From Galbitalea sp. (GTDB lineage Bacteria; Actinomycetota; Actinomycetes; Actinomycetales; Microbacteriaceae), in the NCBI GenBank assembly GCA_036271795.1, contig DATAZY010000096.1, positions 46,610 to 110,609 on the forward strand: a stretch of 64,000 nt of DNA, in the 5' to 3' direction. This document shows, in pieces, positions 1 to 36,846 of this stretch. The notes under the pieces are model-generated. The model saw only the letters and a list, made by a program, of their open reading frames with translations. It searched no databases and was not told the origin of the DNA. Numbering within the stretch: position 1 is the first letter of the stretch; every line of letters starts with the position of its first letter. A program made the position numbers and the translations under genes.

Positions 1-141
1 CGAGTCCTCCATGACAAGTTCATTCCGTTCCCGGCGAGCGGGCAGCAACCGCTCTTCCGTGAACGATTCATGGCTGCGTGCCGACGCCTCTGACCCCAAG
101 GAAGGCAAGAGGCCAGCGCCGCCTACGGCAAGTAACGGGGG

Positions 142-1401
142 CTATTCGCCCTCGTCGGCGCCGGTATCCGTGCTGGAGGATCGGCGGAGTGGCAGGTGCT
201 GCACCACGTCGCCCGCGAACTTGGTAGCTGCGGACGTAGCGCGCTCAAAGGTCTCGCTCCCAAGGCGCGCGACAGACCCGACACCGTTTGCGCCCGTCTT
301 GATCGCCTTGTCCCGAGTCTCGACCGCCGCATCTCGCCAACGCCGCGCTTCCAGCGAGTGCTGCTCGTCCTCGATCCCGAGCCGAACGTGGAACTTCAGC
401 ACGTCGTCAGCCGCATGGCTGCTGGCGCGCACAACTGCTGACGCCTTCATGGGGTGCAGGAGCACGTTCTCGTTGGCGGTGCCAGCCGCCGCATCGATCC
501 GAGTAAGCAGTACCCGAGTGCTCTTGGTAATGAACTCCAGGCGCTTTTGCCGGGCTGCATGCAGTGCCATCCGGTGCCGGTCGAGTTCCTCGGGCGAAGC
601 ATCAAGGACGCGGTCCAACTCAAGTACAGCGAGGCCGTCCTGCAGGCGGAAGCAATGCGCCAGGACCGCGAGCCAGTCCACCACTTTGGCTTCGGCTTCG
701 CGTGATGCGTCCGCGAGGTTCCCGACCTTTGTCTGCTTCTCTAACTTCTCCGCGATTGCGTCCAGCTGCAGCAATGCATAAGCCTGTGTCTTGGCGATCG
801 TGAGCGCCGTGCCCTGCACTTTCGACCAAGTCACCTCGGAGACTCGTCCGACATGTTCGCGAACGATCATGGCCTCGTCGAGGACCGAATCCACCCCGAT
901 CATGTCGGCAAGCACCGCGTTCTTCTGGGCGCGTAGGACATCGTCGACTTTCGCGTCGATCACAGCCAGGTAGTCGAGGATCTCGTCCATGGTTTGCTGC
1001 ATGGCGAGCTGCGCCATGATCCCTGCAGCGCCAGCCAGCATTGCTGGGTTGGTCAGTATGGACCCCGGCGTCTTAACGATCTCCAAGATCCCCTTGACCT
1101 TGCCGCCATTCTCGGTGAGCACTGCACGACTGACGCCGGGACTCGACCCCTTCATGAGCGTTGACTGCTTGAGCGCAGCCGCCGACTGCTCAGTCAGCTT
1201 CACCCAGCGACCGGAGTTGGCCGCCACCTCTGAACCGGCCTGGGCCATTCCAGACGCCGCGCCAAGCTTCGAACCGAGCCGTTGTAAGCCGAGTTCTCGC
1301 GACTGCAACCCTTCGGAGGCAAGGAACCGCTCGATCGCAGCCGGGTCCCCGAAAATCGCGATGCCATCGCCATCGCTGATCAGCTCGAGTTCGCTCGGCA
1401 C
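142..1401 (-). CDS. hypothetical, mostly alpha-helical protein (about 420 aa), no family recognised
   Basis: Long ORF 142..1422. The first codon is TTG. An in-frame GTG at 1401 follows GGAG with 6-nt spacing, so the start is 1401 or 1422. No nameable motif. Confidence 0.55.
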   Translation of the reverse strand: MPSELELISDGDGIAIFGDPAAIERFLASEGLQSRELGLQRLGSKLGAASGMAQAGSEVAANSGRWVKLTEQSAAALKQSTLMKGSSPGVSRAVLTENGGKVKGILEIVKTPGSILTNPAMLAGAAGIMAQLAMQQTMDEILDYLAVIDAKVDDVLRAQKNAVLADMIGVDSVLDEAMIVREHVGRVSEVTWSKVQGTALTIAKTQAYALLQLDAIAEKLEKQTKVGNLADASREAEAKVVDWLAVLAHCFRLQDGLAVLELDRVLDASPEELDRHRMALHAARQKRLEFITKSTRVLLTRIDAAAGTANENVLLHPMKASAVVRASSHAADDVLKFHVRLGIEDEQHSLEARRWRDAAVETRDKAIKTGANGVGSVARLGSETFERATSAATKFAGDVVQHLPLRRSSSTDTGADEGE

Positions 1402-1537
1402 AAGCAGCTCCAAAGTCAACAAACGGGCCTGACTTGGCCCTGCTCGAAACTGTATCGGACCACTCCGACAGCGGTTGCGGCCCCTGCGTCGCCGCTAGTC
1501 TCACGGCAAGCCGAGATCGGAGAAGACACTTCGCCCC

Positions 1538-1909
1538 TTAGGAAGCGCGCCGTCGGCGCAGCAGGGTCGCAGCCGCAACCACGACGAGAAGGGCGATACC
1601 ACCAACAATCCACTGCGCTTGGGTCGACGCGGCGACGCGAGCGACCACCGGACCAATGACGGGGATCGCCGAACCCCATGCAGTGTTTGGATCACCAGGC
1701 GAGCCGGTTTTCCCGTCGCCTGGCGTCGTCAATCCTGCTCCCGGTCCCGCCTGATTCTCAACGGAATAGGCATCTGCGCCATACGTCCCGGAGTCATAGT
1801 CCGCGAACACTCCGACCGGCGTGGTCAGCACCAACGCAACCGCCATAAGAAACGAACCGATCCCGAAGGCGAGTCTGCGTGTTCGTAATGTGGGCGCGAT
1901 CGATGACAT
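1538..1909 (-). CDS. small secreted or membrane-anchored protein
   Basis: ATG at 1909 gives MSSIAPTLRTRRLAFGIGSFLMAVALVL (signal-peptide-like). The C-terminus is a hydrophobic helix plus an RRRRAS tail. No LPXTG or LAXTG motif seen. Confidence 0.5.
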   Translation of the reverse strand: MSSIAPTLRTRRLAFGIGSFLMAVALVLTTPVGVFADYDSGTYGADAYSVENQAGPGAGLTTPGDGKTGSPGDPNTAWGSAIPVIGPVVARVAASTQAQWIVGGIALLVVVAAATLLRRRRAS

Positions 1910-1987
1910 CGTGATTCTCTTGCCGTCCGGGGATAAGTGATTTATACTCACTATCATACCACGTAAGCGATGGGCACGAGGGGGTGA

Positions 1988-2407
1988 ATGGCGCGACTAC
2001 CAGTTCCGGGACAAGACAAGGGCACGTGGGGTGACATCCTCAACGAGTACCTGTCCCAGAGCCATGACGCTGACGGCTCGATCAAGCCAGGCGCCATCGG
2101 TTCGAGTCAGCTTCAAGATGGCACTGTCGAGGCTTCGAAGATCCCCGATGGCGAGATCCCGCTACAAAAGCTCTCATCGGTAGGCGTCGCTCGCGGGCTC
2201 GCCGAGATCGATTCCGATGGCGATGTCATCAATGCTGATGGCGAGAAGCTCATTTCCGCTACGTCATCAAATGCCACTTTCGTCACTTACCTCAAGCACG
2301 ACGGAACGCCACTCGAAGGCACGAAGGTAGTGGTCATCACGCTCACCGAGGACGAGGCGGACATTGACAACGTCGCGGTCTACGACAGCATTGGAGACGT
2401 GGGCTGA
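1988..2407 (+). CDS. tail-fibre-like protein (N-terminal LPVPG..TWGDILN motif)
   Basis: GAGGGGG SD precedes the ATG. The N-terminus ARLPVPGQDKGTWGDILNEYL matches, from memory, the start of many actinophage or prophage tail-fibre and depolymerase proteins. No signal peptide. Its stop overlaps the next start (ATGA at 2404-2407). Confidence 0.6.
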   Translation: MARLPVPGQDKGTWGDILNEYLSQSHDADGSIKPGAIGSSQLQDGTVEASKIPDGEIPLQKLSSVGVARGLAEIDSDGDVINADGEKLISATSSNATFVTYLKHDGTPLEGTKVVVITLTEDEADIDNVAVYDSIGDVG

Positions 2408-4470
2408 TGGCATACATGCGCGATGTTGATGGCGTACGCCTTGATGGCATTCAAATCGCCCCGAAGCTGCCGCTATATGCGAAGGACTTCGGCTTCGGCG
2501 CGAGTGGAGCTTCCGCTTCAGCGAACACGTCGGCGCTAAACTCGGCGATCGCTGCTGCCATGGCTGCAGGGCGGGATCTGCTCTTGCCGCACGTCGGCGC
2601 GTTCGGCACCGCGCTCGACATCAACGACGCGATCACCGTCAGTGGTGCAGGTTTCATCCACATCTACGGGGAGGGTGGCCGGTCGGTGAAGATCCACCAG
2701 ACCGTGAAGCCGAAGACGATCTTCTACGTGACCGCTCCGGGAGTGCGAATCTCCGGCGTTGCGCTCTATGGGGACGGCATCGACATGACCGGCATGGGCA
2801 CGCCCGTGGCCTACGCCGCTTATTGCGGAATCTGGTTCGGCCCTGGTTCAGATGGCGGTAGCTATAACGACATCTACGCGGAGGGTCTGCACCGCGGTGT
2901 CCGTGTCGACCCCGACCCAACGACCGCAACCAGTTCCACTCCGAACCTGAACAACATCACCGGGACAGAACTGACAGGTAAAGATTGCTGGACGATCCTC
3001 ACCGTGGTGCAGGCAGACAACTCGATCTTCCGCGGTATCTACGGCAACTCTAAGAAGGCCACAGCCACAGACGGCACGGACGTAGGTCAGCCTGATCACG
3101 GCGTGTATGTCATCGATCGCACGGGCGACGGGCGCGGGATGCACAACACCTCAATCCAGAATGGCCACATTACGAGTACCGAGATCGGCAAGGCGTACGC
3201 CATCAAGGGAATCACAGGCGGTTCCTCCAGCCACCTGCACGCGGACTCCTGCCACGGGGTACTCGATATCATCGCGACGACGGACTACGACTACTACGAC
3301 ATCCTCTCGACCAACGACACTTACCCGGATTCGGGCGTCGAGTCGTCGTACGCGAGCTTGTCATTCGATACCACTCCGGTGCGCACCCGAGTGATCGGGG
3401 CCAACATCCAATTCGCCCATGCTGACCACGGTGAGGCGATCCTGCTGGACGGTACCAATAACCAGGTGATCATGGCCGCAACGACGGGCAACCGGGTCAC
3501 GGAGGTCACGTCGAACGCTGGGCCGGTGCTATTCAAGGTGAAAGGGCAGAAAAACCGTCTCGAGCACCCGGTCGCAACATCGGTTGGCGCGAACATGTGG
3601 GCTGCGATCCATACCTCTGACACCGGCCAATACGGGAAGGTCATCAACCCGCGCACGATCGGTAACTTCAAGCTCGGTGTCGTCGCCTACGGCATGCACG
3701 ACACCGTCATTGATTATGACCCGGCGTTGGTGGAAACCAACGGGAAGCTGAACGGCGCGACGGACCTCGGCACCAACGCGAAGGCGATCGCCGCGCTCGG
3801 CACGACGTTGCGCCCGAAGATTCGCCCACGGGACCGGCAGGCGCCCAATGGACCTGAGTACTTCTTCTTCGAGCGCGGCACTGACGCGGCCCTGTCCGGG
3901 CACGCTGGGCGCGCAACTTCGGGGCAGGCCGCAACCCTGCAGACAGCGACCTTCACAACCGACCTGACGAACGCGTACGGCCGGATCATGAATAGCAGCA
4001 CTTCCACGACCACGCCGGGCGTGATGCTGTTCTCCACCCAGCGGGAGCTCGCGGATGCCGCCATATCGGACTTCTCACTTGAGATGGAACTGGTCTACAA
4101 CGCGACCAACCCCAACGCCCTCGTCGGTCTCGCATTCTCCGGGGCCGACGCCAGCAACCTGCTCAGCCTGTGTTTCACCGGCACCGGAGCAGCAACGCCA
4201 CAACTCCAGCTTTTCAAGGTCGACACGGGCACCATCACCGTCCTCGGATCACCTACCGTCATGACGCCGGTTGCGGGCACCCGGTATGCGTTGAAGGTCG
4301 TGAAGGTTGGCAACATGATCAAGTGCTTCCTGGACGGAACGCTAGTGCAGACCTACACCCTCACAGGGGGCGACATTACGAAGTACGCCACCCAGACCAC
4401 GGTCGGCTACTACTGCATGCTCTCGACCAACACCCGTTTCTGCGATGTCACAGGTAAGCGCGTCGCCTGA
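2407..4470 (+). CDS. right-handed beta-helix (pectate-lyase-3 / tailspike-like) protein with C-terminal LamG/ConA-like domain
   Basis: N-terminus AKDFGFGASGAS..NTSALNSAIAAAMAAGRDLLLP resembles the Pectate_lyase_3 signature (dfGA.gDG..d.t.Aiq.Ai). The centre is long and Gly/Thr/Asn-rich. The C-terminal 160 aa look like a jelly-roll. No signal peptide. Confidence 0.65.
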   Translation: MAYMRDVDGVRLDGIQIAPKLPLYAKDFGFGASGASASANTSALNSAIAAAMAAGRDLLLPHVGAFGTALDINDAITVSGAGFIHIYGEGGRSVKIHQTVKPKTIFYVTAPGVRISGVALYGDGIDMTGMGTPVAYAAYCGIWFGPGSDGGSYNDIYAEGLHRGVRVDPDPTTATSSTPNLNNITGTELTGKDCWTILTVVQADNSIFRGIYGNSKKATATDGTDVGQPDHGVYVIDRTGDGRGMHNTSIQNGHITSTEIGKAYAIKGITGGSSSHLHADSCHGVLDIIATTDYDYYDILSTNDTYPDSGVESSYASLSFDTTPVRTRVIGANIQFAHADHGEAILLDGTNNQVIMAATTGNRVTEVTSNAGPVLFKVKGQKNRLEHPVATSVGANMWAAIHTSDTGQYGKVINPRTIGNFKLGVVAYGMHDTVIDYDPALVETNGKLNGATDLGTNAKAIAALGTTLRPKIRPRDRQAPNGPEYFFFERGTDAALSGHAGRATSGQAATLQTATFTTDLTNAYGRIMNSSTSTTTPGVMLFSTQRELADAAISDFSLEMELVYNATNPNALVGLAFSGADASNLLSLCFTGTGAATPQLQLFKVDTGTITVLGSPTVMTPVAGTRYALKVVKVGNMIKCFLDGTLVQTYTLTGGDITKYATQTTVGYYCMLSTNTRFCDVTGKRVA

Positions 4471-4513
4471 AGCAACTCAAGACCGGCTAGGTAACCAATG
4501 TGAAAGGAGACTT

Positions 4514-4708
4514 ATGACCACAAGAGAACGAATCAACGAATTACTAGCAATACCTATGGATCGAGCGGGCTTCCTAAGGCTCTCGGCCGGACTCATCATC
4601 GCCGCGATTGGCCTGACACGCTTCCTGGCTCTGTTGAACAAGACAAAAGAGCATTCGTCTCACGACGACTCGATGGCAGGCTACGGCGGGACTTCGTATG
4701 GGGAGTAG
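4514..4708 (+). CDS. 64-aa single-pass membrane microprotein with Tat-signal-like N-terminus
   Basis: AAGGAG SD at 4504-4509 and ATG at 4514. MDRAGFLRLSAGLIIAAIGL resembles S/T-R-R-x-F-L-K followed by an h-region, but has only one Arg at the twin-Arg position. Short polar tail. Confidence 0.45.
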   Translation: MTTRERINELLAIPMDRAGFLRLSAGLIIAAIGLTRFLALLNKTKEHSSHDDSMAGYGGTSYGE

Positions 4709-4776
4709 ACGACGAAGCTGAGGCTGGCCCTAGAGCTTGACTGAAAAACGCTCATGCTTCATACTCCGACGCAGGA

Positions 4777-5820
4777 ATGTGGGTAGCACTACGACCACAC
4801 CAATTTCGACCTCGTCGTCGGCCATCTGACCGCAGCTCTTCGGGAGGCCGCAACGGTTTCACGATCGTGGAGCTCCTCATCGTGATCGTGGTCATTGGCA
4901 TCTTGGCGGCGATCGTCATCGTCGCCTACAACGGCATCCAGCAATCCGCCAGGTCGGCAGTCGCCAAGTCGTCCGCCAGTCAAGCCGCCGCGGCGCTCTC
5001 CACCTACAGCGTTCAGAATTCCGATACGTATCCGACGACCTTGGCCATCGCCGGCATCGTTGACTCCGGCGGCACCACCTACCAATACAGCGTCAACAAC
5101 TCGACCAGCCCCGCGAGCTACTGCGTAACGGCCACCGTCGACTCGACGAGCTTCTACGTCTCGAGCACCAACAACGTCCCGACTACTGGAGCGTGCACCG
5201 GCCAAAGCAACGGTGGCCAGGCGGCAATCACCAACCTGGCGCTCAATCCGAGTTTCACGGTCAAGACGAGTCCGTGGCTCACCAACGCCGGAACCGGGGG
5301 GACCGTTTCGGGTAGTCGGCCGCAGACGGGCGGGATCGTGGATGGCGGTCCATTTACCCGGATCACCTGGTCGGTCCTTCCGACGAGTTCCAATGGGTAC
5401 ATCACGGAAGGGAGCGGCTCAGTACTGGCAACGACCGCCGTAACTCCCGGCGTGACATACACGATCTCCGGGTACGTCAAAACGTCGTGGGCGGCACAGG
5501 TCTACGTGAACACAACGTCCTACACCTCTGGCTTGGGCACGGTGGCGGGCTTCGCGGGACCAACAGTCACCTTGGCGTCCGGCTCATGGACGCGGCTCTC
5601 GCTGACGTTCACCGCACCGGCCACAGCAGCCGTAACGACACTCCGGTTCTCCCTCGTGACGGGCGGCCCCTTGCCGCCATCGGTTGGCAGCACCTTCGAT
5701 GTTGATGAGGTCATGGCGACCCAAGGCTCGACCCTTTACAACTACGCGGACGGCGACAGCCCGAGCTGGTCTTGGACGGGAACACCGAGCGCCTCCACCT
5801 CGACGGGATACGCGCTATGA
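4777..5820 (+). CDS. prepilin-type N-terminal cleavage/methylation domain protein fused to a CBM4_9-like carbohydrate-binding domain
   Basis: G|FTIVELLIVIVVIGILAAIVIVAYNG is a canonical class III (type IV pilin) signal with Glu at +5. The leader is unusually long (27 aa). The C-terminal ITNLALNPSF...W...G..YTISGYVK...WTRLSLTFTAP pattern resembles CBM_4_9. Confidence 0.75.
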   Translation: MWVALRPHQFRPRRRPSDRSSSGGRNGFTIVELLIVIVVIGILAAIVIVAYNGIQQSARSAVAKSSASQAAAALSTYSVQNSDTYPTTLAIAGIVDSGGTTYQYSVNNSTSPASYCVTATVDSTSFYVSSTNNVPTTGACTGQSNGGQAAITNLALNPSFTVKTSPWLTNAGTGGTVSGSRPQTGGIVDGGPFTRITWSVLPTSSNGYITEGSGSVLATTAVTPGVTYTISGYVKTSWAAQVYVNTTSYTSGLGTVAGFAGPTVTLASGSWTRLSLTFTAPATAAVTTLRFSLVTGGPLPPSVGSTFDVDEVMATQGSTLYNYADGDSPSWSWTGTPSASTSTGYAL

Positions 5821-5972: not shown

Positions 5973-6527
5973 CTACTCGTCGTCTAACTGGGCGATGCCC
6001 CAAAGTTCCCGGTCGGTCTCTCTCGCCTGTAGGTCAAGAAACTGCTCCTCCGTGAGGACGCGCACAGCTCTGGCGCCGGTCGCCCGGTCGGATAGCTCCA
6101 TCGCCCAGATGACTGCTTGGAAGTAGTCATCGTAGACGAAGGGATGCATCATCCAGCGTGGCGAGTCCTCGTAGAGGGTGAGCACCACGTGGGCCGTCCT
6201 CTCCATGAGCAGCTTGAACGTCGATTCCGGCACGTCGGTGGTGTCGCCGTTCTCGTCGGGAAGCCCGACCAAGACGGCGTCGCCAACCAGTAGCGACTGC
6301 TGCCGAACGTGCGGGAGTTCGTACCACCAGAGAAACGTCGCTCTTGCATTGAACGGAAGCTCCCGGAGGAGTCCTTCTTCGTTGACATAGAGCGTGCTTC
6401 TGATCGGGACGATGTCCACCGCTTCGATCCATCCGCCGACTGCCGATTGGTAGTCCTCGAGTGAATCAAAGCTGCGGACTTCGATGGGTCGATCGAGATC
6501 GACCGGGATGAATAGTCCTTGGACCAT
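5973..6527 (-). CDS. DUF3846-like protein
   Basis: AAGGAGG SD precedes the ATG at 6527. MVQGLFIPVDLDRPIEVRSFDSLEDYQSAVGGWIEAVDI...LYVNEEGLL..LPFN matches my recollection of the DUF3846 N-terminal pattern. The track ORF start at 6656 is rejected. Confidence 0.6.
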   Translation of the reverse strand: MVQGLFIPVDLDRPIEVRSFDSLEDYQSAVGGWIEAVDIVPIRSTLYVNEEGLLRELPFNARATFLWWYELPHVRQQSLLVGDAVLVGLPDENGDTTDVPESTFKLLMERTAHVVLTLYEDSPRWMMHPFVYDDYFQAVIWAMELSDRATGARAVRVLTEEQFLDLQARETDRELWGIAQLDDE

Positions 6528-6687
6528 TGCTTCCTCCTTGGTGCGAGCGACCGGCAACCCGGATGGGTTTCCTGATAAGTCGCATGGCACCAACGAGGTG
6601 GTGCCCCACTCGATGTGGACGAGTGAGCGCAGCAACCGTCCCGAGGGAGAGCGCAAAGCTCTCTGGACCTCGGGGCGGCTGCCGCTG

Positions 6688-7017
6688 TCAGGCGTCTGCC
6701 TGTTTGGTCCGCGGACCGCTCTTGGCCGGAGCGGTCTCCGCGGAGCCGCCGAAGATCGCCGCGATGGCGTTGCGCTTTGTCTCTGCCTCGCGTTCGATCT
6801 CGGCTCGAACCGACTCGGCTCGCTGGAGCGTTCTCGGGTCGGACTTGGTGGTCTCGACCCAGCCCTCCAGGGCGACTCGGATCTCTTCGGTGACGCTGCG
6901 ATCGTTCAACTGGGCAATTACATCCAGCTGAGCACGCAGGTCATCGGTGATGCGGACTGCCAGGGTTCGCATCGGGCTTGCCGACGCATAGCCGCCGGCG
7001 TTTGTGACGTCACTCAT
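6688..7017 (-). CDS. ribbon-helix-helix (CopG/Arc-like) DNA-binding protein
   Basis: RTLAVRITDDLRAQLDVIAQLNDRSVTEEIRVALEGWV fits a beta-strand, helix, helix RHH layout. ATG at 7017, with GTG at 7026 also possible. The C-terminal tail is charged. Confidence 0.6.
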   Translation of the reverse strand: MSDVTNAGGYASASPMRTLAVRITDDLRAQLDVIAQLNDRSVTEEIRVALEGWVETTKSDPRTLQRAESVRAEIEREAETKRNAIAAIFGGSAETAPAKSGPRTKQADA

Positions 7018-7269
7018 GTGCGTCACGCTCCTCTCTCGTCGCGACCGACGATCCCTGGTTGGGATCCTCTAGGCCGCTTTCGGGAGAGGAGTGAAAACGG
7101 ATTATGAACTATTGGTACGGAATGTCAACAGGATTTTGAGCAAGTTGTAAAAACCACAACAACGCCGCCTCTGTTAGCACAAGCGCTACATGTGGTGTCC
7201 AACGTGAGCGGTACGACACAAGGTACGACGCTCGAAAAGCCCTCATTGGTGCTTTGGCGTCGCGTGCAC

Positions 7270-8743: not shown

Positions 8744-9043
8744 ATGAGCAACATCGTTCCGTTCGGCTCAGGGGGCCTCGGCTCCTTTGCCCAGAACAGA
8801 GAGTCGCGGGAACTGGCTCGCGTCGGCCACCGCGCACTCGGCGAAGTCGAGATCGGCGCAAAGGTCATCGCGATGAAGGAGCAGTACCGTGCCGAACTCG
8901 CGAACCAAGCCCTCACTAACCTTGGTGCGCTCAGCGCCCTGGAGCAGACCTTGACGCAGGCGACCCCCACGGCGGCACCCCGCTACAAAGCCATCGTCGA
9001 CGCGTACACGGCCGGGGCGATCAACACCCTGATGAGGTTCTGA
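8744..9043 (+). CDS. hypothetical 99-aa protein
   Basis: Internal ATG at 8744 (MSNIVPFGSGG...). Its stop overlaps the next start (TGATG at 9040-9045). Confidence 0.45.
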   Translation: MSNIVPFGSGGLGSFAQNRESRELARVGHRALGEVEIGAKVIAMKEQYRAELANQALTNLGALSALEQTLTQATPTAAPRYKAIVDAYTAGAINTLMRF

Positions 9044-9312
9044 TGTTCGTGCTCCTCACGCTTGGACTGGTCGTGGCGGGCAAGGCGGTCGGTGCCGGAG
9101 TCGCTGGCATCGCCTCGGGTGTCGGCTGGATCGCGGAAAGGCCGCAGCGCCGACGTGCTCACATCGAAGCCGAACTGGATCGCACTCAGGCCCAGCTTCG
9201 GAGAACGGTTCTGCAGCTGGCGACCGAGATCAGCAACGCGGGCCTTGACGCCAGAAAGGACTTGCTCCAGCAGGCGTACGTGGCGTCCCGCGGGCTCCCG
9301 CCCGCCTCCTAA
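9043..9312 (+). CDS. small membrane protein with coiled-coil tail
   Basis: The N-terminus MFVLLTLGLVVAGKAVGAGVAGIASGVGWI is hydrophobic. It is followed by a helical, charged segment. Translationally coupled to the preceding ORF. Confidence 0.45.
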   Translation: MFVLLTLGLVVAGKAVGAGVAGIASGVGWIAERPQRRRAHIEAELDRTQAQLRRTVLQLATEISNAGLDARKDLLQQAYVASRGLPPAS

Positions 9313-9322
9313 CCGAGGTCAG

Positions 9323-9358
9323 AAGGAGCCGCTCCTGGCACCCGGCGCGGCTCCTTTT
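9323..9358 (+). terminator. rho-independent terminator
   Basis: AAGGAGCCGC (9323-9332) pairs with GCGGCTCCTT (9347-9356), and the T run extends to 9358. It lies directly after the 9312 stop. Confidence 0.6.
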
Positions 9359-9520
9359 CCACTCTGACACGTCCTGCCGAAACGGTCGTTGTCCATTCCA
9401 CAACACCCTCAATCGGTGTCGATTCCGCCTGCGCCTGGAGCACTCGGACATCTGTTTCAGCGCGTCGTGCCGTGCGTCAGATCGCTCTGGCCGAAGGACC
9501 GCGCTCCGCGACGAAAAGTC

Positions 9521-9549
9521 TTGACGATTCGGCGCTTTCAGTTCATAAC
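9521..9549 (+). promoter_or_regulatory. possible sigma-70-type promoter for the methyltransferase gene
   Basis: TTGACG (9521-9526), a 17-nt spacer, then CATAAC (9544-9549), about 60 nt upstream of the ATG at 9609. By eye only. Confidence 0.3.
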
Positions 9550-9608
9550 CATGCATCCCAGACCGGGCAACCACAAGCAGCTCGCGTAGGAGAAAGGACC
9601 ATCACGAA

Positions 9609-10256
9609 ATGAAGAACACAAGGAACACGCACCCGGAGGCCACTCAGTCTGAGCACGGTCCCTTCCGAGTGATCTACGCGGACCCGCCCTGGGACATAGC
9701 CCAGCTCGGGCCTCGTGGGGCTTCCAAGCATTACGACCTCATGACCTTGGAGGACATCAAGGGCATGGGCGAGGCGGTCAAGTCGCTCGCCGCAGTCGAC
9801 TCAGCACTTTTGCTCTGGGTCACCAACGGCGCGCTGCCTGCCGGCCTTGCCGTGATGGAAGCGTGGGGATTTCGATACGTCTCCAACGCTGCCTGGGACA
9901 AGTACTACATGGGGCTCGGCAACTACGTTCGCAACTCGCATGAGCTGCTACTCGTTGGGATCCGAGGCAAGGTGACGCCGAAGTTCCGCGGCCAGCGGTC
10001 CGTGTTGCATTTCCCACGCATGGCGCACTCCGTGAAGCCCGCCGAAACCTATCCGATGATCGAGCGACTCTTCGATGGGCCGTACCTCGAACTGTTTGCA
10101 CGCCTCCGTCCGAGTAGCACCAGTGACTGGAGCATCTGGGGCAATGAAGTCGATAGCGACGTTTCCCTCGCAGCGTGGGGTTACCCGGTGCCGTCCGACT
10201 TCGCGAGCCAAAGCAATGAGAGCGCCGACAGCAAGGAGGACGGTGATGAGCAGTGA
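9609..10256 (+). CDS. MT-A70 family N6-adenine DNA methyltransferase (orphan)
   Basis: The DPPW catalytic motif is present (VIYADPPWD). Length and layout are typical of MT-A70. GGAGAAAGGA SD. No restriction partner is visible. Confidence 0.85.
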   Translation: MKNTRNTHPEATQSEHGPFRVIYADPPWDIAQLGPRGASKHYDLMTLEDIKGMGEAVKSLAAVDSALLLWVTNGALPAGLAVMEAWGFRYVSNAAWDKYYMGLGNYVRNSHELLLVGIRGKVTPKFRGQRSVLHFPRMAHSVKPAETYPMIERLFDGPYLELFARLRPSSTSDWSIWGNEVDSDVSLAAWGYPVPSDFASQSNESADSKEDGDEQ

Positions 10257-10453
10257 GAAGCGCACCCGAGCCGAAGAGCCTGCTGAGCCGATTCGTCGGA
10301 GCCAGTTTGCTGGCTCTCGTCGCGGCGATCGCCTTGACGCTGGCCTTCGACCTTCTGACAAAGATCTGGCTCTGGCTGCTACTCACCGTCGTTCTTGGCG
10401 CGCTGGTCGCCGTCGTCGTGTGGGTGGTCCGTCGTCGGCGCGACCGCTGGTGA
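10253..10453 (+). CDS. 66-aa two-helix membrane protein
   Basis: Two hydrophobic helices plus an RRRRDRW tail. Its start overlaps the methyltransferase stop. Confidence 0.45.
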   Translation: MRSAPEPKSLLSRFVGASLLALVAAIALTLAFDLLTKIWLWLLLTVVLGALVAVVVWVVRRRRDRW

Positions 10454-10487
10454 GCGAGCCGATCCCGCAAGAGGAGAGGCGGGAACT

Positions 10488-10646
10488 ATGACGGGCAAGC
10501 GCGGCCGGCCAGGAGGCAAACGTGACTTCCGAATCATTCCGCACCGGCTGAGCGAAGCCAATGCGAGAAGACTGGCTCGCTTCATCCAGCAACTGGAGGT
10601 TAATCGCAACTCGAAAACTGACACAGGTCCGGAGGATCCTCGATGA
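10488..10646 (+). CDS. 52-aa basic protein
   Basis: GGAGAGG SD and ATG at 10488 (MTGKRGRPGGKRDFRIIPHRL...). Its stop overlaps the start of the coupling-protein gene. Confidence 0.4.
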   Translation: MTGKRGRPGGKRDFRIIPHRLSEANARRLARFIQQLEVNRNSKTDTGPEDPR

Positions 10647-12796
10647 AGCGTTCTGAACGTACTTGGTCTGAACTCGCTTTTCCCGCGAGGCCGGACGCCA
10701 GTGACGTGCAGGCGCTCGTCGAACACCTTGCCGCCAGCTCAACGCTCGGGACGATTGTCTTTGAGGCCCGAGCTTCCGGGGGCCACGTTCGCTACCTATT
10801 GGGGTCTGACCCAGACCACCACTCGGCACTCACGCGGCTGATCTTCCATCACCTGCCTGGCTACGACCTCGTGCCTCTCGGCCAATCACGGGACGCACCC
10901 GATGCCGCGTTGACCGTCCGCGCCTCCGGTCGAGGATTGCCGCTTCGCACCGACAGTCTCGAAGCGACGACGCTGTCGATGCTCAGCGCACTATCTGCCG
11001 CGACGAGTGCCGAGGAGGTCATTCTTCAGTTGACGTTAGGACGTCGTCTCGCCCCGGCCTTAGACGACGATTCCACGCCGCGCTACCTAACCCTGCGCGA
11101 CGCGCTCATTGGTCAGGCCGACAAGCTGCCAACCTCTGCGCGAACCCGCTATCGGGCCAAACGCGCCGTTCACGGGTTCGAGGCGGCCATCCGGCTTGGT
11201 GCCCGGGCCGGGAACGAACGCCGCACACACGGCCTCCTACGGGCGCTCCTGGGGGGCCTTCGTACCCTCGAGGCGCCAGGGGTTCGACTGGGCGCGCACG
11301 ACATCGCGCCTGGTCAGATCACCGACCCGGCTGTGAGCAATGGCCTCCTCTCAAGACCACTCGCGCTCTCATCAATTGAGGTCGCAGCGCTTCTCAGTTG
11401 GCCAGTTGGGAAGGGGTTTCTCCCAGGGCAACCGCCGAAGCATCCGAAACGCGTGAACGCGCCGACCGGTCTTCGCGATGCGCGGCGTCCGTTCGCCGTC
11501 GCGACACAACCCGGTCATGAACTGCGTGTCGGGTTAGGTCGAGAGGACTCACTCACGCACGCGCTACTCATCGGGCGGACAGGGTCAGGCAAGAGCGTGG
11601 TCATGAGCCACTTGATCCTCGATGCGATCGACGACGGTCGCAGCGTGCTGGTCATCGACCCGAAGGGCGATCTCATCTCGCGCGAGATCCTTCCTCGTAT
11701 CCCGGCGATCCGTCGAGACGACGTCGTGGTTATCGACCCGATGAGTGATCTCCCAGTCGGTATCAATCCGTTCGCCGAGCCTGGCTCGGCCGAGCTCATC
11801 GCCGATGGACTGCTCGCCGTGTTTAAGACCGTCTACGCCGACTCCTGGGGACCACGACTCGAGGACATCCTGTCGTCGGCATTGCTAACACTCGCGCGCA
11901 CGAAGGGCTCGACGCTCGCGATGTTGCCCGCGCTGCTGACCGATGCAGCCGTGAGGCGTCGCCTCACGAAAAGTCTTCACGACCCAGTGGGCCTCGAGCC
12001 CTTCTGGCACAGCTACGAAGCGATGAGCCCTGAGCAGCGCGCTCAAGTGATTGCCCCGGTACTCAACAAGCTCCGACCGTACCTCTTGCGATCCAGCTTG
12101 CGTCGCACGCTCGGACAAGCCGATCCAAAGTTCTCGCTGTCGGAGCTCTTCTCAAAGCGGCGCATCGTTCTCGTCAACCTGAACAAAGGGCTCCTCGGAG
12201 CCGAAGGAGCGCGACTCCTCGGCTCACTCGTCGTGAGCCAGGTGTGGCCACTCATCCTCAATCGAGCAGCAGTGCCACCAGAGCGGCGCCACATCGTGAA
12301 CGTGTTCATCGACGAGGTCCAGGACTACTTGGCGCTTCCTACCGATCTGGCCGATGCCTTCGCCCAGGCACGCGGTCTCGGTGTCGGCTTCACAGTCGCG
12401 CACCAATATCGACGCCAACTCCCGGGCGCTCTTCTCGCCGGCCTGGACTCGAACGCGCGGAGCGTCATTGCCTTCGGCTTGGACCACGACGATGCGGTTG
12501 CCGTCGCGAAGCGGGCGCCCAACCTCGAGGCGGAAGACTTCATGTCTCTCGGCCGACACGAGGTCTACGCCAACTTGATGAACGGCGGAGAAGCGACTGG
12601 ATGGTTCATGGCGAGCACGCTCGGACCGACCGCGCCACTCGCTGACGCCCAAGCGCTCCTGCGCATCAGCCTGGAACGGTACGGCCGCGCAGCTGCCGAC
12701 GTCGACCGGGAGATCGAACGGGCAATCGGAATCGGCGAGGACATCATCGCGCCAGACGAGCCGATCGGACGCCGCCCAAAGGGAGGCTCGTCATGA
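10643..12796 (+). CDS. type IV coupling protein-like ATPase (TraD/VirD4/TraG superfamily), soluble form
   Basis: Walker A GRTGSGKS and Walker B VNVFIDEVQD. The C-terminal half resembles a TraM-recognition or TrwB-type domain. I see no N-terminal TM helices. Confidence 0.75.
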   Translation: MKRSERTWSELAFPARPDASDVQALVEHLAASSTLGTIVFEARASGGHVRYLLGSDPDHHSALTRLIFHHLPGYDLVPLGQSRDAPDAALTVRASGRGLPLRTDSLEATTLSMLSALSAATSAEEVILQLTLGRRLAPALDDDSTPRYLTLRDALIGQADKLPTSARTRYRAKRAVHGFEAAIRLGARAGNERRTHGLLRALLGGLRTLEAPGVRLGAHDIAPGQITDPAVSNGLLSRPLALSSIEVAALLSWPVGKGFLPGQPPKHPKRVNAPTGLRDARRPFAVATQPGHELRVGLGREDSLTHALLIGRTGSGKSVVMSHLILDAIDDGRSVLVIDPKGDLISREILPRIPAIRRDDVVVIDPMSDLPVGINPFAEPGSAELIADGLLAVFKTVYADSWGPRLEDILSSALLTLARTKGSTLAMLPALLTDAAVRRRLTKSLHDPVGLEPFWHSYEAMSPEQRAQVIAPVLNKLRPYLLRSSLRRTLGQADPKFSLSELFSKRRIVLVNLNKGLLGAEGARLLGSLVVSQVWPLILNRAAVPPERRHIVNVFIDEVQDYLALPTDLADAFAQARGLGVGFTVAHQYRRQLPGALLAGLDSNARSVIAFGLDHDDAVAVAKRAPNLEAEDFMSLGRHEVYANLMNGGEATGWFMASTLGPTAPLADAQALLRISLERYGRAAADVDREIERAIGIGEDIIAPDEPIGRRPKGGSS

Positions 12797-12953
12797 ACAT
12801 GCCGAAGCTCAGGAACCGTCACACCGGTCGTCACGTCGCTGCATCGAACGCCTTCTTCTCGCCCCGCGACTTCGGCCAACAGGGGCGATTAGCGGATATG
12901 ACTCCACCACCTTTCAAGTGGTGTTTCAGAGGACCACTGCGGAGGTGCTCGTC

Positions 12954-13814
12954 ATGAACCACGACCGCATGGGCGCCGACAAGCTCGTTCAGTTGCTCGA
13001 ACACCTTTCGCCGATGGACCACGCAGTTCTTGCTCGGCTGCAGGAGCACCCCTACTTGCAAACCGTCCAGGTAGCGCGGTTCGATTTCGCCGAACGTCCG
13101 ACTCAGCTTGCAGCGGTTCGGGCTGCCCACCGAGCCCTCAAGAAGCTCCGTGTCCTCGGACTCGTTTTCATGATGGAGCGGACGATTGGCGGACCGGCAA
13201 GAGGATCGACTGCAGCAGTCTGGACCATCACCAACACGGGGCAACGAGCTGCATCGCTGCACGCCGGCGAAGGGGACGAACCCAGACGCCGACTGTCTGA
13301 TCCGACGACGGTGTTCCTTCGCCATCAGGTCGCGGTGGCCGACTTGCACCTGGCATTGCTCGATGCGGCGAAGACGATCTCCCTCACGCTTCGGCACTTC
13401 CAGATTGAGCCGCTGTGCTGGCGGCGTTACGTCGGCCCCCTTGGCGGGATGGTCGTTCTCAAACCAGACCTTGCCGTGGACGTTGATTCGGCCAACTTCA
13501 TATCCCGCTACTTCTTCGAAGTCGACCGCGCGACGGAAGCACCAAGCCGGATCTTGACCAAGTGTCTCCAGTACCAGGAGTACTACCGCTCGGGAGAAGA
13601 GGAGCGTCGCGGTGAAGTCCTGCCGCTCGTGATCTGGGTTGTTCCGACCGAAGCCCGCCGCGAACAAATACTTCGCCACCTGACGACCCATAACGGCATC
13701 AACCCAAGACTGTTCCGCGTCGTCCTTGGGAGCCAGGTTTCTGCGGTCGTTGGCGAAGACGATGAGGTCGGACGGCTACCCGAAAATCTGCACACGATGG
13801 GCAGCCAATCATGA
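12954..13814 (+). CDS. replication-relaxation family protein
   Basis: GGAGG SD is 8 nt before the ATG at 12954. LLEHLSPMDHAVLARLQEHPYLQTVQVARF is a winged-helix-like N-terminus typical of the Replic_Relax family. Positioned between the T4CP and the recombinase. Confidence 0.65.
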   Translation: MNHDRMGADKLVQLLEHLSPMDHAVLARLQEHPYLQTVQVARFDFAERPTQLAAVRAAHRALKKLRVLGLVFMMERTIGGPARGSTAAVWTITNTGQRAASLHAGEGDEPRRRLSDPTTVFLRHQVAVADLHLALLDAAKTISLTLRHFQIEPLCWRRYVGPLGGMVVLKPDLAVDVDSANFISRYFFEVDRATEAPSRILTKCLQYQEYYRSGEEERRGEVLPLVIWVVPTEARREQILRHLTTHNGINPRLFRVVLGSQVSAVVGEDDEVGRLPENLHTMGSQS

Positions 13815-15751
13815 CGCTCGACGCGGAAAAACGTGGTGAAAACTACATCCCGGATACAACTGGGGCGGGCATGGCTGAACTTTCCCCGGAGGGCCCAAAT
13901 GGACTGGACTTCCTCGCCGAAGAGAGGGTTAATCCGGAGGACCTAACTGGAGGAACCCCCAAAATGAGCGATCTCAATTCACTAGCCACAAAGCCCGCCG
14001 TGACGTCCATAACGGGACTCGAGCACCTAATGACGAACAACGACGCGGCACGAAGGGCGGCTCGTCGTGCTACCGCAGTCTTGTATCTGCGAGTGTCCAC
14101 AAGCCGACAGACCCACACGGGTTCGGATGTCGACGAAGACGGCAACTCGATTGCGACCCAACGAGAGCACACCCTCAAGAAAGCGAAGCAGCTTCGAGCC
14201 AGCATCGCGCGCGAGTTCGTGGAACCAGGTGCCAGCGCACGATCGATCGACAAGCGCCCGGTGTTCAAGGAGATGCTGCGTTTCATTGACGATCACCCCG
14301 AGGTGACGCATGTCATCGCCTACCAACGATCCCGAATGTTCCGGAGCGTTGCCGACAGCGCGATCGTGGAGTCAGCCCTAGCGGAGAAGGGTATCGAGAT
14401 CGTTTCTGCAAAGGAGGACTACGGCAAGGGACCGGATGGCCTGATCATGAAGACCATCACGGACGCCTTCAACCAGTGGCAGTCGCAGAAAAACGGTGAA
14501 GACATCAGTCTCAAGATGGCCCACAAGGTTGAACAGGGCGGAAGCGTCGGGATGGCGAAGCTGGGATACCTGAACGTTCGGAAAGAGTATGGCGGCCATC
14601 TCGTCAACACGATCGACGTCGATCCCATTCGCGGTCCGCTGGTTAAGTGGGCGTTCGAGCAGTACGCCTTAGGGGAACTGTCCGTCGGGCAGCTTCAGGC
14701 TGACCTCGAGGAACAGGGATTGGTGATGCGAGCCACTCCAAGCAAACCCGAGCGGCCAATATCGATCAGCCAGCTCGGCGTCATCCTGCGTGACCCTTAC
14801 TACACAGGCGTGACGCGCTACAAAGGCAGGCTCTATCCGGGCCGGCATATACCGCTGATCTCGAAGGAGACCTTTCTCACCGTCCAGCAGATTCTCGATT
14901 CACGCAACAGAACAGGAGATCGTGACCGGGTCCATTTCCACTATTTGCGCGGGCTCCTCTACTGCGCCGAGTGCGCGCGCCACGGACGCGACAGCCGTCT
15001 GGTCTACAGCCAAAATCGTGGGAACGGTGGCCTTTACGAGTACTACATCTGCACCGCCAAGCAACGCGGCCACTGCACGGCCGGAGCCGTTCGGGTCGAC
15101 TTGCTCGAGCGAAAGCTAGTCGACCTGGTCTACGCAGAACGGTTGAGCCCCGTGGCGATCGGGGCACTACGAGACCGATTGTTGGAAAGCATGGAGGACC
15201 TTCGGATTGCCGACCGCGAGATGAAGGCGTCCCTTCGCCGACAGTCGGAGAAGCTTCGAGGAGCCGAGCAGAGGCTAATCGACGTGCTCGCCGACGGTTC
15301 CATGCCGCTGGAGCAGATACGAACCCGCCTTGAGAAAGTAAGCCTGGAGCGTCAGGCGGTCGACGAAAAGCTCGCACGAACGACCGAGCGAATCGAGCAC
15401 GGCGTCAATGCGGTGCTTGGCTATCTCGACCTCTTGGAGAAGCCCGGACCTCTGTTCGAGCGGGCAGACGATGCCGCCAGGCGAGAGTTCCTGCTTGCAC
15501 TCTTTGAAAAGCTTCTCGTGGAAGAAGTCGATGGCGTCGAGGCTGACGGAGAACGAACCGCACCCAACCGCTCACTCCACGACCTTGAACCGCGTGCGTT
15601 GGAAATCGAAACGGGCACGAACCGAAACGGCCCCCGCGATGATGCGGAGGCCGAAGGGAAACCAATGAGCGGACCATATAGTCCCCATGGTTTGAATAGC
15701 AGTGTTCTGGTAGCGACGGCGGGACTCGAACCCGCGACACCACGATTATGA
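13811..15751 (+). CDS. large serine recombinase
   Basis: Resolvase catalytic region AVLYLRVSTSRQ. A recombinase domain, a zinc ribbon (CAECARHG...YYICTAKQRGHC) and a coiled coil follow. The true start may lie downstream (MSDL or MTNN). The last codons are antisense to a tRNA fragment. Confidence 0.9.
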   Translation: MTLDAEKRGENYIPDTTGAGMAELSPEGPNGLDFLAEERVNPEDLTGGTPKMSDLNSLATKPAVTSITGLEHLMTNNDAARRAARRATAVLYLRVSTSRQTHTGSDVDEDGNSIATQREHTLKKAKQLRASIAREFVEPGASARSIDKRPVFKEMLRFIDDHPEVTHVIAYQRSRMFRSVADSAIVESALAEKGIEIVSAKEDYGKGPDGLIMKTITDAFNQWQSQKNGEDISLKMAHKVEQGGSVGMAKLGYLNVRKEYGGHLVNTIDVDPIRGPLVKWAFEQYALGELSVGQLQADLEEQGLVMRATPSKPERPISISQLGVILRDPYYTGVTRYKGRLYPGRHIPLISKETFLTVQQILDSRNRTGDRDRVHFHYLRGLLYCAECARHGRDSRLVYSQNRGNGGLYEYYICTAKQRGHCTAGAVRVDLLERKLVDLVYAERLSPVAIGALRDRLLESMEDLRIADREMKASLRRQSEKLRGAEQRLIDVLADGSMPLEQIRTRLEKVSLERQAVDEKLARTTERIEHGVNAVLGYLDLLEKPGPLFERADDAARREFLLALFEKLLVEEVDGVEADGERTAPNRSLHDLEPRALEIETGTNRNGPRDDAEAEGKPMSGPYSPHGLNSSVLVATAGLEPATPRL

Positions 15752-36033: not shown

Positions 36034-36846
36034 TTAGAATTTATTTGCGCTTTGACCGGCACTTTTTGTCGCCATTTCGCTTATTGCATCCGTCGGTACT
36101 GAAGGCGGTCGGCCTTGGCTCACACTTCCGTGCCGTTTGTGGCGCGACTTATTGAGCTGTGGTGCGATGACCTCCGCGATCGTATCGGCCCACTTTCGGT
36201 AGGTTCGGGCGTCGCGCACACCGAGAGCATTGGTCGGCACGACCGAGGGCAGCGACACATAGGTCGCATTGGAAGACTCGCACAGGCAGAGAGTCGCCTC
36301 GTTGATTTGCAGCACATGAGCCGAGATAAACCTGCCTAGCCTAGAGGTGTATCCGGGAATGGTTTGGACCGGCGGTATCCCTGTCACGAACGTTTGAGGT
36401 CGTCCTGACGTCTGGTCGAGGCTGTCGAGCACTACAAGAAATTTCTCGCTCCAAATCGACAACGGCATTAGCCTGATGGCGTCGTTTGTGCCAAGCACAA
36501 TGACAACCGCATCGAACTGGGACATGTCGGCCGCCTTCAACATTGGTCCGGCATTGCTCACCGTGATCCGCATGTCCGCGATCAGTTCGACCTTGGTACC
36601 GCGCCCGGTCCTCAGCGTCAGGGCGCGGGCGAGCGAGCCTGGCAGTGCGATTGCATGGGTTAGCACAGCCCAGCCAACGGCTGGACCGGAACCGAATATC
36701 AATATCCGATCTGGATCCGGACCTACCGCGGCGGCATCCGCAGCATCACGCGGTCGCGGCGCTGACTGGTTTTCTGTTTGCTGCAGGACCAACCAGCATC
36801 TCGTAACCGGAGCCAATATCCGGCAGAGCAAATCGTGACGGTACAT
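36034..36846 (-). CDS. SGNH/GDSL-like hydrolase
   Basis: ILIFGSGPAVGW (block I-like) and VVIVLGTNDA (block III GxND). Confidence 0.65.
   Translation of the reverse strand: MYRHDLLCRILAPVTRCWLVLQQTENQSAPRPRDAADAAAVGPDPDRILIFGSGPAVGWAVLTHAIALPGSLARALTLRTGRGTKVELIADMRITVSNAGPMLKAADMSQFDAVVIVLGTNDAIRLMPLSIWSEKFLVVLDSLDQTSGRPQTFVTGIPPVQTIPGYTSRLGRFISAHVLQINEATLCLCESSNATYVSLPSVVPTNALGVRDARTYRKWADTIAEVIAPQLNKSRHKRHGSVSQGRPPSVPTDAISEMATKSAGQSANKF

Follow-up and report, generated by a model that had tools for sequence, protein, structure and literature searches.

The locus

The DNA analysed here, called the window below, is a stretch of 64,000 nucleotides (64 kb) of Galbitalea sp. (Actinomycetota, Microbacteriaceae; assembly GCA_036271795.1, contig DATAZY010000096.1, positions 46,610 to 110,609), numbered from its first nucleotide. 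Four consecutive genes near its left end, designated A to D, had been described in an earlier note, made from the sequence alone, as one glycan-recognition cassette of a mobile element with no phage or pilus machinery around it. Our comparisons show that these genes belong to two separable modules. As judged from their sequences, A and B are a phage-derived two-piece fibre, and D is predicted to be an orphan type IV pilin with a lectin domain. The region that holds them is, in our reading, the cargo slot of an integrative, probably mobilizable element ("island" below) in a Microbacteriaceae chromosome.

An ORF check of the window confirmed all four open reading frames (ORFs) on the + strand, with unchanged coordinates (Table 1). 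The genes are intact and have good ribosome-binding sites: the Shine-Dalgarno sequence of A is GAGGGGG, and a strong AAAGGAG precedes the ATG of C at 4514, giving the 64-aa form of this protein. The 3' stop codon of A and the 5' start codon of B overlap by 1 nt in TGATG (2405-2409), the arrangement of translationally coupled genes. No Pfam match was found for A, B or C. In hydropathy profiles neither A nor B shows a hydrophobic N-terminus or any other hydrophobic segment, and D has the N-terminal helix to be expected of a pilin. The G+C content at third codon positions (GC3) of A to D equals that of host genes, which marks the four genes as long-term residents and not recent imports. A recent import from the low-GC Saccharibacteria was ruled out on this ground.

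Table 1. Coordinates of features of the cargo slot and the island backbone in the window
Feature	Position	Strand	Basis or remark
Variable block (up426, up139, A, B, C)	48..4735		Missing from sister element L006 by blastn
up426, 426-aa protein	142..1422	-	Within variable block; without Pfam, PHROGs or PADLOC match
up139, small surface protein	1538..1957	-	N-terminal signal/anchor, C-terminal transmembrane segment, RRRRAS tail
Promoter-like site of A, TTGCCG-17-TATACT	1920..1948	+	Consensus scan only
A, predicted fibre adaptor, 139 aa	1988..2407	+	N-terminal anchor, short shaft, docking domain (residues 95-139)
Joint peptide MAYMRDVDGVRLDG..., B residues 1-22	2407..2472	+	50% identity to residues 1-22 of gp24 of phage ArV2
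B, predicted tailspike-like right-handed beta-helix, 687 aa	2407..4470	+	AlphaFold2 (AF2), Foldseek, PDB profile, phrog_23819, Woes gp9
C, 64-aa single-pass membrane microprotein	4514..4708	+	Shine-Dalgarno AAAGGAG, hydropathy, L012 homologue
Promoter-like site of D, TTGACT-17-CATACT	4737..4765	+	Left edge of the DNA common with L006
D, predicted orphan modular type IV pilin, 347 aa	4777..5820	+	Pfam, AF2, Foldseek
DUF3846 protein and ribbon-helix-helix (RHH) protein	5973-6656, 6688-7026	-	Pfam; flank the cargo slot
MT-A70 methyltransferase, backbone	9609..10256	+	Pfam 4.5e-21
Type IV coupling protein (T4CP)-like ATPase	10643..12796	+	Pfam TrwB_AAD_bind, T4SS-DNA_transf, DUF87; NCBI names of relatives
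Replic_Relax protein, putative relaxase or nicking initiator	12918..13814	+	Pfam 2.9e-29; phrog_9381 "replication initiation by nicking"
Large serine recombinase, right end of element	13811..15751	+	Pfam Resolvase, Recombinase, Zn_ribbon_recom

A predicted two-piece fibre of phage origin

Protein A starts with M-A-R-L-P-x-P-G-x-D-x-G-x-W-G-D-I-L-N-E-Y-L, which is invariant in 13 aligned sequences. Over residues 1-46, A matches N-terminal sequences of Streptomyces phage proteins. Phage GiJojo has this module joined directly to a beta-helix of pectate-lyase type (gp34), and in phage BRock it is carried by a collagen-like protein. The same N-terminus begins a 1309-aa protein with tail-spike PHROG matches on the IMG/VR contig L177 (compared loci are numbered with an L) and a 207-aa tail-region protein of the small temperate phage L178. 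Sequence comparison thus places in A a virion-anchor module homologous to phage fibres. A scan of viral contigs with a strict pattern of the A motif returned 2 loci among 2.9 million contigs, a figure that is probably an undercount given the strictness of such patterns.

The other end of A is related to another phage. A shares 60% identity over residues 95-139 with the C-terminus of gp23 of Arthrobacter phage vB_ArS-ArV2 (ArV2), and the gp23 gene is coupled by a 1-nt overlap to that of gp24, annotated as a virion structural protein. Residues 1-22 of B (MAYMRDVDGVRLDG...) are 50% identical to the first 22 residues of gp24, the body of gp24 being unrelated. The joint peptide recurs at the start of P0147, a further member of the B family, and of the protein that partners the closest A relative, in metagenome locus L186. 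In the simplest reading, the C-terminal domain of A would take up the N-terminal peptide of an exchangeable head, and this joint would be conserved. On these comparisons A is a mosaic of phage modules.

The AF2 model of B, computed from an alignment of 44 relatives, has a predicted local distance difference test score (pLDDT) of 89.5 and a predicted template modelling score (pTM) of 0.87. It consists of a beta-helix at residues ~25-450, a linker domain, and a beta-sandwich at residues ~540-687 (nt 4024-4467) that is similar to LamG and to the carbohydrate-binding module (CBM) CBM66. In a Foldseek search against the PDB, phage tailspikes come out on top: CBA120 TSP2 (2e-11), Klebsiella Depo32, Det7, cyanophage Pam1 and Sf6. 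The last ~150 residues are matched by Foldseek to the CBM66 of Bacillus levanase (TMt about 0.65), and a profile of B against the PDB retrieves the CBM66 entries 4b1m, 4b1l and 4azz at E 1.6e-9. The Pfam family PF12708 is recognised in 4 of the 44 members of the B family, in which H231, Y234, G284, D304 and G667 are invariant (alignment A1). From the model, B is predicted to be a tailspike-type beta-helix glycanase with a CBM66-like lectin end. The Foldseek list of B also includes an Arthrobacter DFA-IIIase (inulin fructotransferase) beside the fructan-binding CBM66, which gives a faint hint of a fructan-like substrate.

The relatives of B come from phages as well. B matches phrog_23819 ("virion structural protein") at 5e-64, and over 650 residues it shares ~32% identity with a virion structural protein of Gordonia phage Woes, gp9. 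The family is very small, with 45 clusters (E<=1e-10) among 1.84 billion representative proteins; a word-indexed search found one relative, and an exhaustive search gave the rest. The only close full-length relative (53% identity) is encoded in a ~35-kb phage contig, L004, alongside genes for a portal, a scaffold, a capsid and a primase-polymerase. There, too, a 1-nt overlap couples its gene to an upstream gene of 265 aa. The product of that gene was considered as a homologue of A and rejected, being unrelated in sequence. A scan of viral contigs with a 6-sequence alignment of B returned Woes itself and nothing more.

A predicted lectin pilin of Saccharibacteria type

Both parts of D are above their Pfam cut-offs: N_methyl (PF07963) at residues 25-47, with 24.9 bits against a cut-off of 21.2, and CBM_4_9, with 32.7 bits against 25.9. 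The leader of 27 aa (4777-4857) is Arg-rich and ends in the cleavage motif G/FTIVE (the slash marks the cleavage point). The full site, with ...GGRNG before and FTIVELLIVIVVIGILAAI after the cleavage point, has the Gly at -1, Phe at +1 and Glu at +5 of a class III signal. In the AF2 model (62 homologues; pLDDT 90.7), an alpha1 helix at residues 30-80 is followed by a small pilin head and a beta-sandwich, which Foldseek matches to CBM4, CBM22, CBM16 and CBM61 at E about 1e-7. The lectin domain covers about residues 150-347 (nt 5224-5817).

More than 2900 homologues of D were found, and those with a name are from Candidatus Saccharibacteria or Microsaccharimonas, plus one from Microbacterium. 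Nearly all of the 80 metagenome loci fetched with D have a GC of 0.41-0.52 and, where context is visible, contain compact housekeeping neighbourhoods and pilin clusters. By these sequence matches, the pilin family of D is otherwise almost confined to Saccharibacteria. In a crude neighbour-joining tree of D homologues, the island copies are scattered among Saccharibacteria sequences and the branches are star-like. The leaders of the island-borne pilins (D, P0007, P0012, P0048, P0066, P0071, P0093 and P0122 were compared) are 26-63 residues long and Arg-rich, with up to 13 Arg, as against 5-17 residues in the Saccharibacteria homologues; the G/FTIVE motif is unchanged. Minor tail proteins of Arthrobacter phages share 31-36% identity with the lectin domain of D, and a CBM in common with these phages is consistent with a ligand on actinobacterial envelopes.

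In Nanosynbacter lyticus TM7x, PilX1, the largest minor pilin of the essential pilus, has a lectin-like domain with a beta-jelly-roll fold, and the cells rely on wall glycans when attaching to their actinobacterial host (PMC11623550). The A-type fibre is also found in DNA resembling that of Patescibacteria. In a Patescibacteria-like locus (L174, GC 0.47), a protein with an A-type N-terminus and SGNH, Ig and LamG parts is followed by a pilin, downstream of defence genes, and an A-type fibre is present in a Patescibacteria metagenome-assembled genome (MAG; L175).

Two small membrane proteins beside the fibre

Protein C has one transmembrane segment by hydropathy (residues 20-42) and a conserved C-terminal motif, AGYGGTSYG. 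In the sister element L012 a C homologue lies 3' of the A-type fibre gene. The gene up139 is transcribed divergently from A, and its product has hydrophobic segments at 28-54 and 108-135. In L012 (43% identity) and in L186, too, an up139 homologue is located upstream of the A-type gene in divergent orientation.

A Gly/Tyr-rich motif is predicted on the outer side of the membrane in both proteins. It reads DYDSGTYGADAYS, EIYDEGTYGSGYYS or SGYATGTYGAGAYG in up139 homologues and AGYGGTSYGE or AGYGGTSYGR in C homologues; the genes concerned lie in the window at 1538-1957 (-) and 4514-4708 (+), in L012 at 2703-3080 and 4849-5046, and in L186 at 3-440. This motif may be a docking site of the fibre. 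On the 1.5-kb contig L186, the up139-like ORF at 3-440 (-) has no stop and runs in frame into GFTIVELLI, where a mature pilin begins, at the contig end. An assembly error, a fusion or a pilin leader of unusual length could each account for this.

Much of what the earlier note had said of the single proteins is borne out by these data. The four genes and the coupled arrangement of A and B are real, A and B are without a recognisable signal peptide by hydropathy, and the tail-fibre-type N-terminus ascribed to A recurs in L177, L178 and GiJojo gp34. The folds proposed for B (a beta-helix with a LamG-like end) and D (a prepilin joined to a CBM4_9-like domain) were both obtained in the predicted structures, Foldseek and profile or Pfam matches agreeing with them. 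The description of C as a Tat-like membrane microprotein stands for the membrane part only. The Tat signal was rejected, because C reads D-R-A-G-F-L-R-L and its L012 homologue D-R-A-Q-F-L-K-L, each with a single Arg at the twin-Arg position of S/T-R-R-x-F-L-K.

The island and its surroundings

The cargo is followed by a backbone that ends, as the earlier note had proposed and Pfam confirms, with a T4CP-like ATPase, a Replic_Relax protein and a large serine recombinase. The ATPase matches PF10412 (7.9e-8) and PF02534 (4.4e-7) and has the Walker A motif GRTGSGKS. It also matches PHROG 5156 (unknown function, 6e-38), which includes gp156 of phage G and gp27.4 of SPO1, both large Bacillus phages. 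The element has its own recombinase, a putative relaxase and a T4CP-like ATPase and, in the sequence read, no mating-pore genes, which is the composition of an integrative and mobilizable element. The cargo slot, between a conserved 176-aa gene and the DUF3846-RHH pair, is a cargo hotspot; this pair adjoins cargo also in L006, L012, L183 and the Mycobacteroides abscessus locus L172.

The left flank was read from two metagenome contigs that are identical to the window over 14.5 kb and reach 7.6 kb further left. Positions 1-5010 of the resulting locus L001 (7.6 to 2.6 kb left of the window) are a defence-type cargo arm with a PDDEXK_13/REase-ARP protein, a McrBC-like pair (a DUF2357 and PDDEXK_7 protein and an AAA_5 ATPase) and an N6_N4 methylase. 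Among the sister islands there are restriction systems of type I and of Eco57I type, SMODS/S_4TM genes and an OLD-family ATPase. Neither the window nor the 7.6 kb read on its left was found to contain virion, type IV secretion system or pilus-assembly genes, and no capsid, portal, terminase or tail genes were found in these regions or in the sister elements. A prophage left of the window is thus ruled out for the 7.6 kb read. PHROGs searches revealed no hidden structural genes among the backbone proteins of undefined function. PADLOC found no match for these or for the cassette proteins, and a plasmid collection searched with A and D gave none.

The gene up426 was seen in the window element only. 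A 256-aa ORF rich in Ser, Arg and Ala (11-781, +) lies antisense to it and is most likely a spurious high-GC ORF. Repeats flanking the block 48-4735 were sought as a sign of transposition, and nothing convincing was found. To the right of the recombinase, a host LacI-type regulator gene follows at 16134, and between 16 and 64 kb every sizeable ORF tested has a place in the metabolism or sugar transport of the host; they code for regulators, dehydrogenases, glycoside hydrolases and ABC sugar transporters. At 36034-40046 (-) the host encodes a GDSL-like esterase and an 857-aa CE2_N protein, surrounded by genes for sugar transport and for GH2, GH31, GH43 and apiosidase-like hydrolases. This chromosomal region serves the utilisation of plant polysaccharides and is unrelated to the island.

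Sister elements and the separability of the two modules

Related elements were collected by scanning a genome collection with the T4CP-like protein and by looking up homologues of D and A; the interpretation of the island rests on about a dozen loci. Sister elements share the DUF3846, RHH, MT-A70, T4CP-like, Replic_Relax and serine recombinase genes. The backbone proteins of the window are 55-92% identical in amino acids to those of L006 and L012, and MT-A70 is kept in L006, L012-L015, L018, L181 and L183. The MT-A70, T4CP-like and Replic_Relax core is also present in Corynebacterium, Mycobacteroides and Nocardioides. In a Candidatus Saccharibacteria MAG (CAZWHA010000002.1, locus L015, contig GC 0.49), this core occupies 8928-14697, is followed by a tyrosine integrase and adjoins housekeeping genes; its T4CP-like protein is 39% identical over the full length. 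The presence of the core in L015 and in Actinobacteria suggests that the island family spans hosts and episymbionts.

The two modules come apart in these elements. In L006, a metagenome locus with a GC of 0.61, D adjoins the DUF3846-RHH pair and A, B, C, up139 and up426 are all missing. In blastn the homology between L006 and the window ends at ~47 and resumes at 4736, just upstream of the promoter-like site of D. The T4CP-like gene of L006 (13428-15582) is frameshifted, with two tblastn segments in different frames and 6 stops on translation, and from this split gene L006 may be a decaying element. The reverse case is L012, a Salinibacterium MAG, which has an up139-like gene, a 531-aa protein joining the A N-terminus to a GDSL/SGNH domain, a C homologue and DUF3846, and has neither D nor B. 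Its DNA breakpoints with the window lie at about 69, 1961-2079 and 5898. In metagenome locus L183, D adjoins the DUF3846-RHH pair and a 526-aa A-type GDSL protein lies beyond RHH. L186 (metagenome, GC 0.64) has the closest A relative, coupled to an MTYMRD-type partner, and the divergent up139-like ORF that runs into a pilin N-terminus. In M. abscessus (L172) the DUF3846-RHH pair is accompanied by an A-type adaptor of 217 aa and a coupled 445-aa GDSL protein, with no pilin. Pilins without a fibre are found in Microbacterium schleiferi (L008) and, as two pilins in tandem, in the metagenome locus L181.

Both module types therefore recur in the island family, the fibre module (with up139 and C) being separable from the pilin module. 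The pilin recurs in L006, L008, L131, L181, L183 and L186, and fibre and pilin stand side by side in three high-GC loci. Different heads are found on the same adaptor in at least five high-GC loci; by sequence comparison, the enzymatic head is exchangeable and can be a beta-helix or an SGNH esterase.

These comparisons divide the claims that the earlier note had made about the region as a whole. A to D do appear to be accessory genes of a mobile element, all predicted to recognise or cleave glycans, and both gene types co-occur in relatives with the T4CP, Replic_Relax and recombinase element. The absence of phage and pilus machinery was confirmed in the window and the 7.6 kb to its left, and the complete prophage that might have contained the first genes was not seen in that flank. 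The absence of a phage connection is wrong as regards origin, given the phage two-piece fibre and the close relative of B in a phage contig. The idea of one conserved four-gene cassette fails in the synteny of relatives, L006 having D only and L012 only the fibre and C.

Possible functions of the cargo

With a confidence somewhat short of even, we favour the possibility that both modules assist the element during transfer, either in making contact between cells or in getting through the glycan layer; the target glycan and the benefit are what we infer. In the fibre, A would provide an N-terminal anchor and a C-terminal docking domain, and B would plug in via its first ~20 residues; up139 and C accompany this module. 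D, with its own promoter-like site, would be a second module. Inserted through its prepilin leader, D would be displayed as a lectin. It would be part of a filament where prepilin peptidase and assembly machinery come from the host, and would otherwise stay anchored in the membrane. Fibre and pilin would bind or cleave actinobacterial cell-wall polysaccharide on behalf of the element. Gram-positive conjugation relies on adhesins at the cell surface, and the formation of mating pairs can be helped by type IV pili (bioRxiv 10.1101/2025.01.22.634366). The adaptor kept while heads are swapped, together with the invariant N-termini of A and the pilin, argues for selection, and the recurrence of both modules supports the idea of an envelope-glycan-targeting cargo.

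Several observations weigh against this possibility. A and B are without a signal peptide or hydrophobic segment, so a role at the cell surface would need an export route. No prepilin peptidase or pilus-assembly ATPase or platform gene was found in the 64-kb window or its flanks, and the three Actinomycetales genomes of Imam et al. had tad operons and no Pil operons (PMC3244431). Transfer by conjugation is also something we infer, since the T4CP-like ATPase has no transmembrane anchor or helices (no hydrophobic segment; maximum 19-residue Kyte-Doolittle score, KD19, 1.27) and no VirB4-like gene was seen in the window or the 10-kb flanks of the sister loci. No empty site of the island was found, and its left end lies beyond the sequence read. 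Finally, the defence-rich cargo arms fit protective roles as well as transfer roles.

The missing export signals would be best explained if A and B were never exported at all. They may be built, via the anchor of A, into particles of a co-resident or infecting phage, D being unrelated cargo. Helper virions that carry the island would then be retargeted, allowing a satellite-like spread, or the phage progeny would be defective, which would amount to defence. Virion proteins have no signal peptides either, the N-terminus of A is that of real phage tail spikes and fibres, the A/B joint is the gp23/gp24 joint of ArV2 with its annotated virion structural protein, the relatives of B are virion proteins, and the element has many defence genes. 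We nevertheless consider this unlikely, if still worth weighing. The backbone looks conjugative or mobilizable and has no terminase, capsid or packaging-redirection gene, and A-type fibres lie in Patescibacteria chromosomes with no phage genes nearby. The company of up139 and C suggests a location in the envelope, and the A-type N-terminus is rare in viral collections even allowing that the two loci noted above came from a strict pattern. It is quite unlikely that the cargo instead protects its host by having B or an SGNH head, together with the D lectin, trim, de-esterify or cover the polysaccharide of the host's own wall, so that phages and Saccharibacteria lose their receptor. The tools are those of the attackers of Actinobacteria, the family of D being essentially Saccharibacterial and its CBM occurring in Arthrobacter phages; glycan-dependent attachment of Saccharibacteria is documented (PMC11623550); and the cargo lies among restriction, McrBC-like, OLD/Gabija-like and SMODS genes. 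Yet A and B would face the same export problem as in transfer, PADLOC gave no match, and the strict cleavage motif and alpha1 of D point to a filament where a plain secreted lectin would do.

Two further explanations were considered. The mosaic origins, the extreme rarity of the B family (the 45 clusters mentioned above, in 1.84 billion) and the frameshifted T4CP-like gene of a sister element would all suit inert passengers, that is, captured remnants of phage and Saccharibacteria genes with no current function. This is very unlikely in our view, because all four ORFs are undamaged and preceded by good ribosome-binding sites, their GC3 is like that of the host, at least five high-GC loci retain the adaptor with exchanged heads, and the extreme N-terminus of A and the N-terminus of the pilin are invariant. 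A single machine encoded by one fixed four-gene operon is extremely unlikely. The four genes are adjacent on one strand in the window, and fibre and pilin adjoin again in L183, L186 and the Patescibacteria-like L174. Against this stand the loci with D only (L006) or with fibre and C only (L012), the different order and orientation in L183 and L186, the promoter-like site of D and the DNA breakpoint between C and D. A broader scenario, which we regard as speculative and give a low probability, is that mobilizable islands of Actinobacteria and of a Saccharibacteria MAG trade an envelope-glycan toolkit, the host copies acting as immunity by destroying or masking the attachment polysaccharide. The toolkit of this scenario would be made up of the phage-type fibres with swappable glycan-active heads and the lectin-tipped pilins.

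Relation to known systems

Taken singly, the parts belong to familiar classes, namely tailspike-type receptor-binding proteins, type IV pilins of modular build and integrative mobilizable elements. A and B resemble two-component phage fibres (ArV2 gp23/gp24, Woes gp9, CBA120-type tailspikes) in having an anchor, a docking joint, a beta-helix head and a lectin end. The likeness extends to the 1-nt stop/start coupling, the homology of the joint, the homology of B to Woes gp9 and to the L004 protein, and the tailspike fold match. Unlike phage fibres, they come from an island that has genes of conjugation type and, in the sequence read, none for a virion, and two small membrane proteins accompany them. 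D is similar to modular type IV pilins such as PilX1 of TM7x (PMC11623550; likened from its description) and those of Streptococcus sanguinis (PMC8179133), with a class III leader, alpha1, a small head and a grafted carbohydrate-binding beta-sandwich. Its nearest sequence relatives are Saccharibacteria pilins, which lie in pilin gene clusters. In contrast, D is an orphan on a mobile element of a high-GC actinobacterium, with a leader that is long, at 26-28 aa, and Arg-rich, and no PilB, PilC or PilD nearby.

The island shares with integrative and mobilizable elements (PMC5704250) a recombinase at one end, a relaxase-like protein, a T4CP-like ATPase, the lack of mating-pore genes and a variable cargo that includes defence systems. 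It differs from the described ones in that its relaxase candidate belongs to the Replic_Relax family and its T4CP-like protein has no transmembrane helices. Helper-tail satellites, that is, phage-inducible chromosomal islands of the capsid-forming type (cf-PICIs; bioRxiv 10.1101/2025.02.11.637232) and the Streptomyces MiniFlayer (PMC10690885), are likewise hitchhikers tied to phage tail parts; unlike them, the present island has no capsid or packaging genes and a conjugation-type backbone. In the literature we found helper-tail satellites and gene-transfer-agent tailspikes, and no conjugation-type island with such cargo.

We found no earlier description of the combination of a fibre adaptor with swapped heads on non-viral actinobacterial islands and orphan lectin pilins of Saccharibacteria type. 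To our knowledge, phage-type fibres and lectin pilins have not been described as cargo of integrative mobilizable elements. A functional parallel is the thin pilus of the IncI1 plasmid R64, whose variable PilV tip adhesins recognise surface glycans of the recipient. R64 encodes a whole pilus machinery and switches its adhesins by a shufflon; the island has the pilin only, and its variation comes through gene exchange.

Saccharibacteria are obligate epibionts of Actinobacteria. If the recurrence of the two modules holds, mobilizable islands of Actinobacteria carry their own gear for recognising surface glycans, borrowed from phages and common to Saccharibacteria. The cargo would also be a source of candidate enzymes and lectins specific for actinobacterial wall polysaccharides, the rhamnose-containing polymers of Microbacteriaceae being one possible target, with none identified here. 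Culturable carriers of such islands exist in M. schleiferi and M. abscessus. The accessory functions of such islands would be extended by a new class, next to resistance and defence genes, and their cargo would be concrete evidence for gene flow between episymbiont and host lineages.

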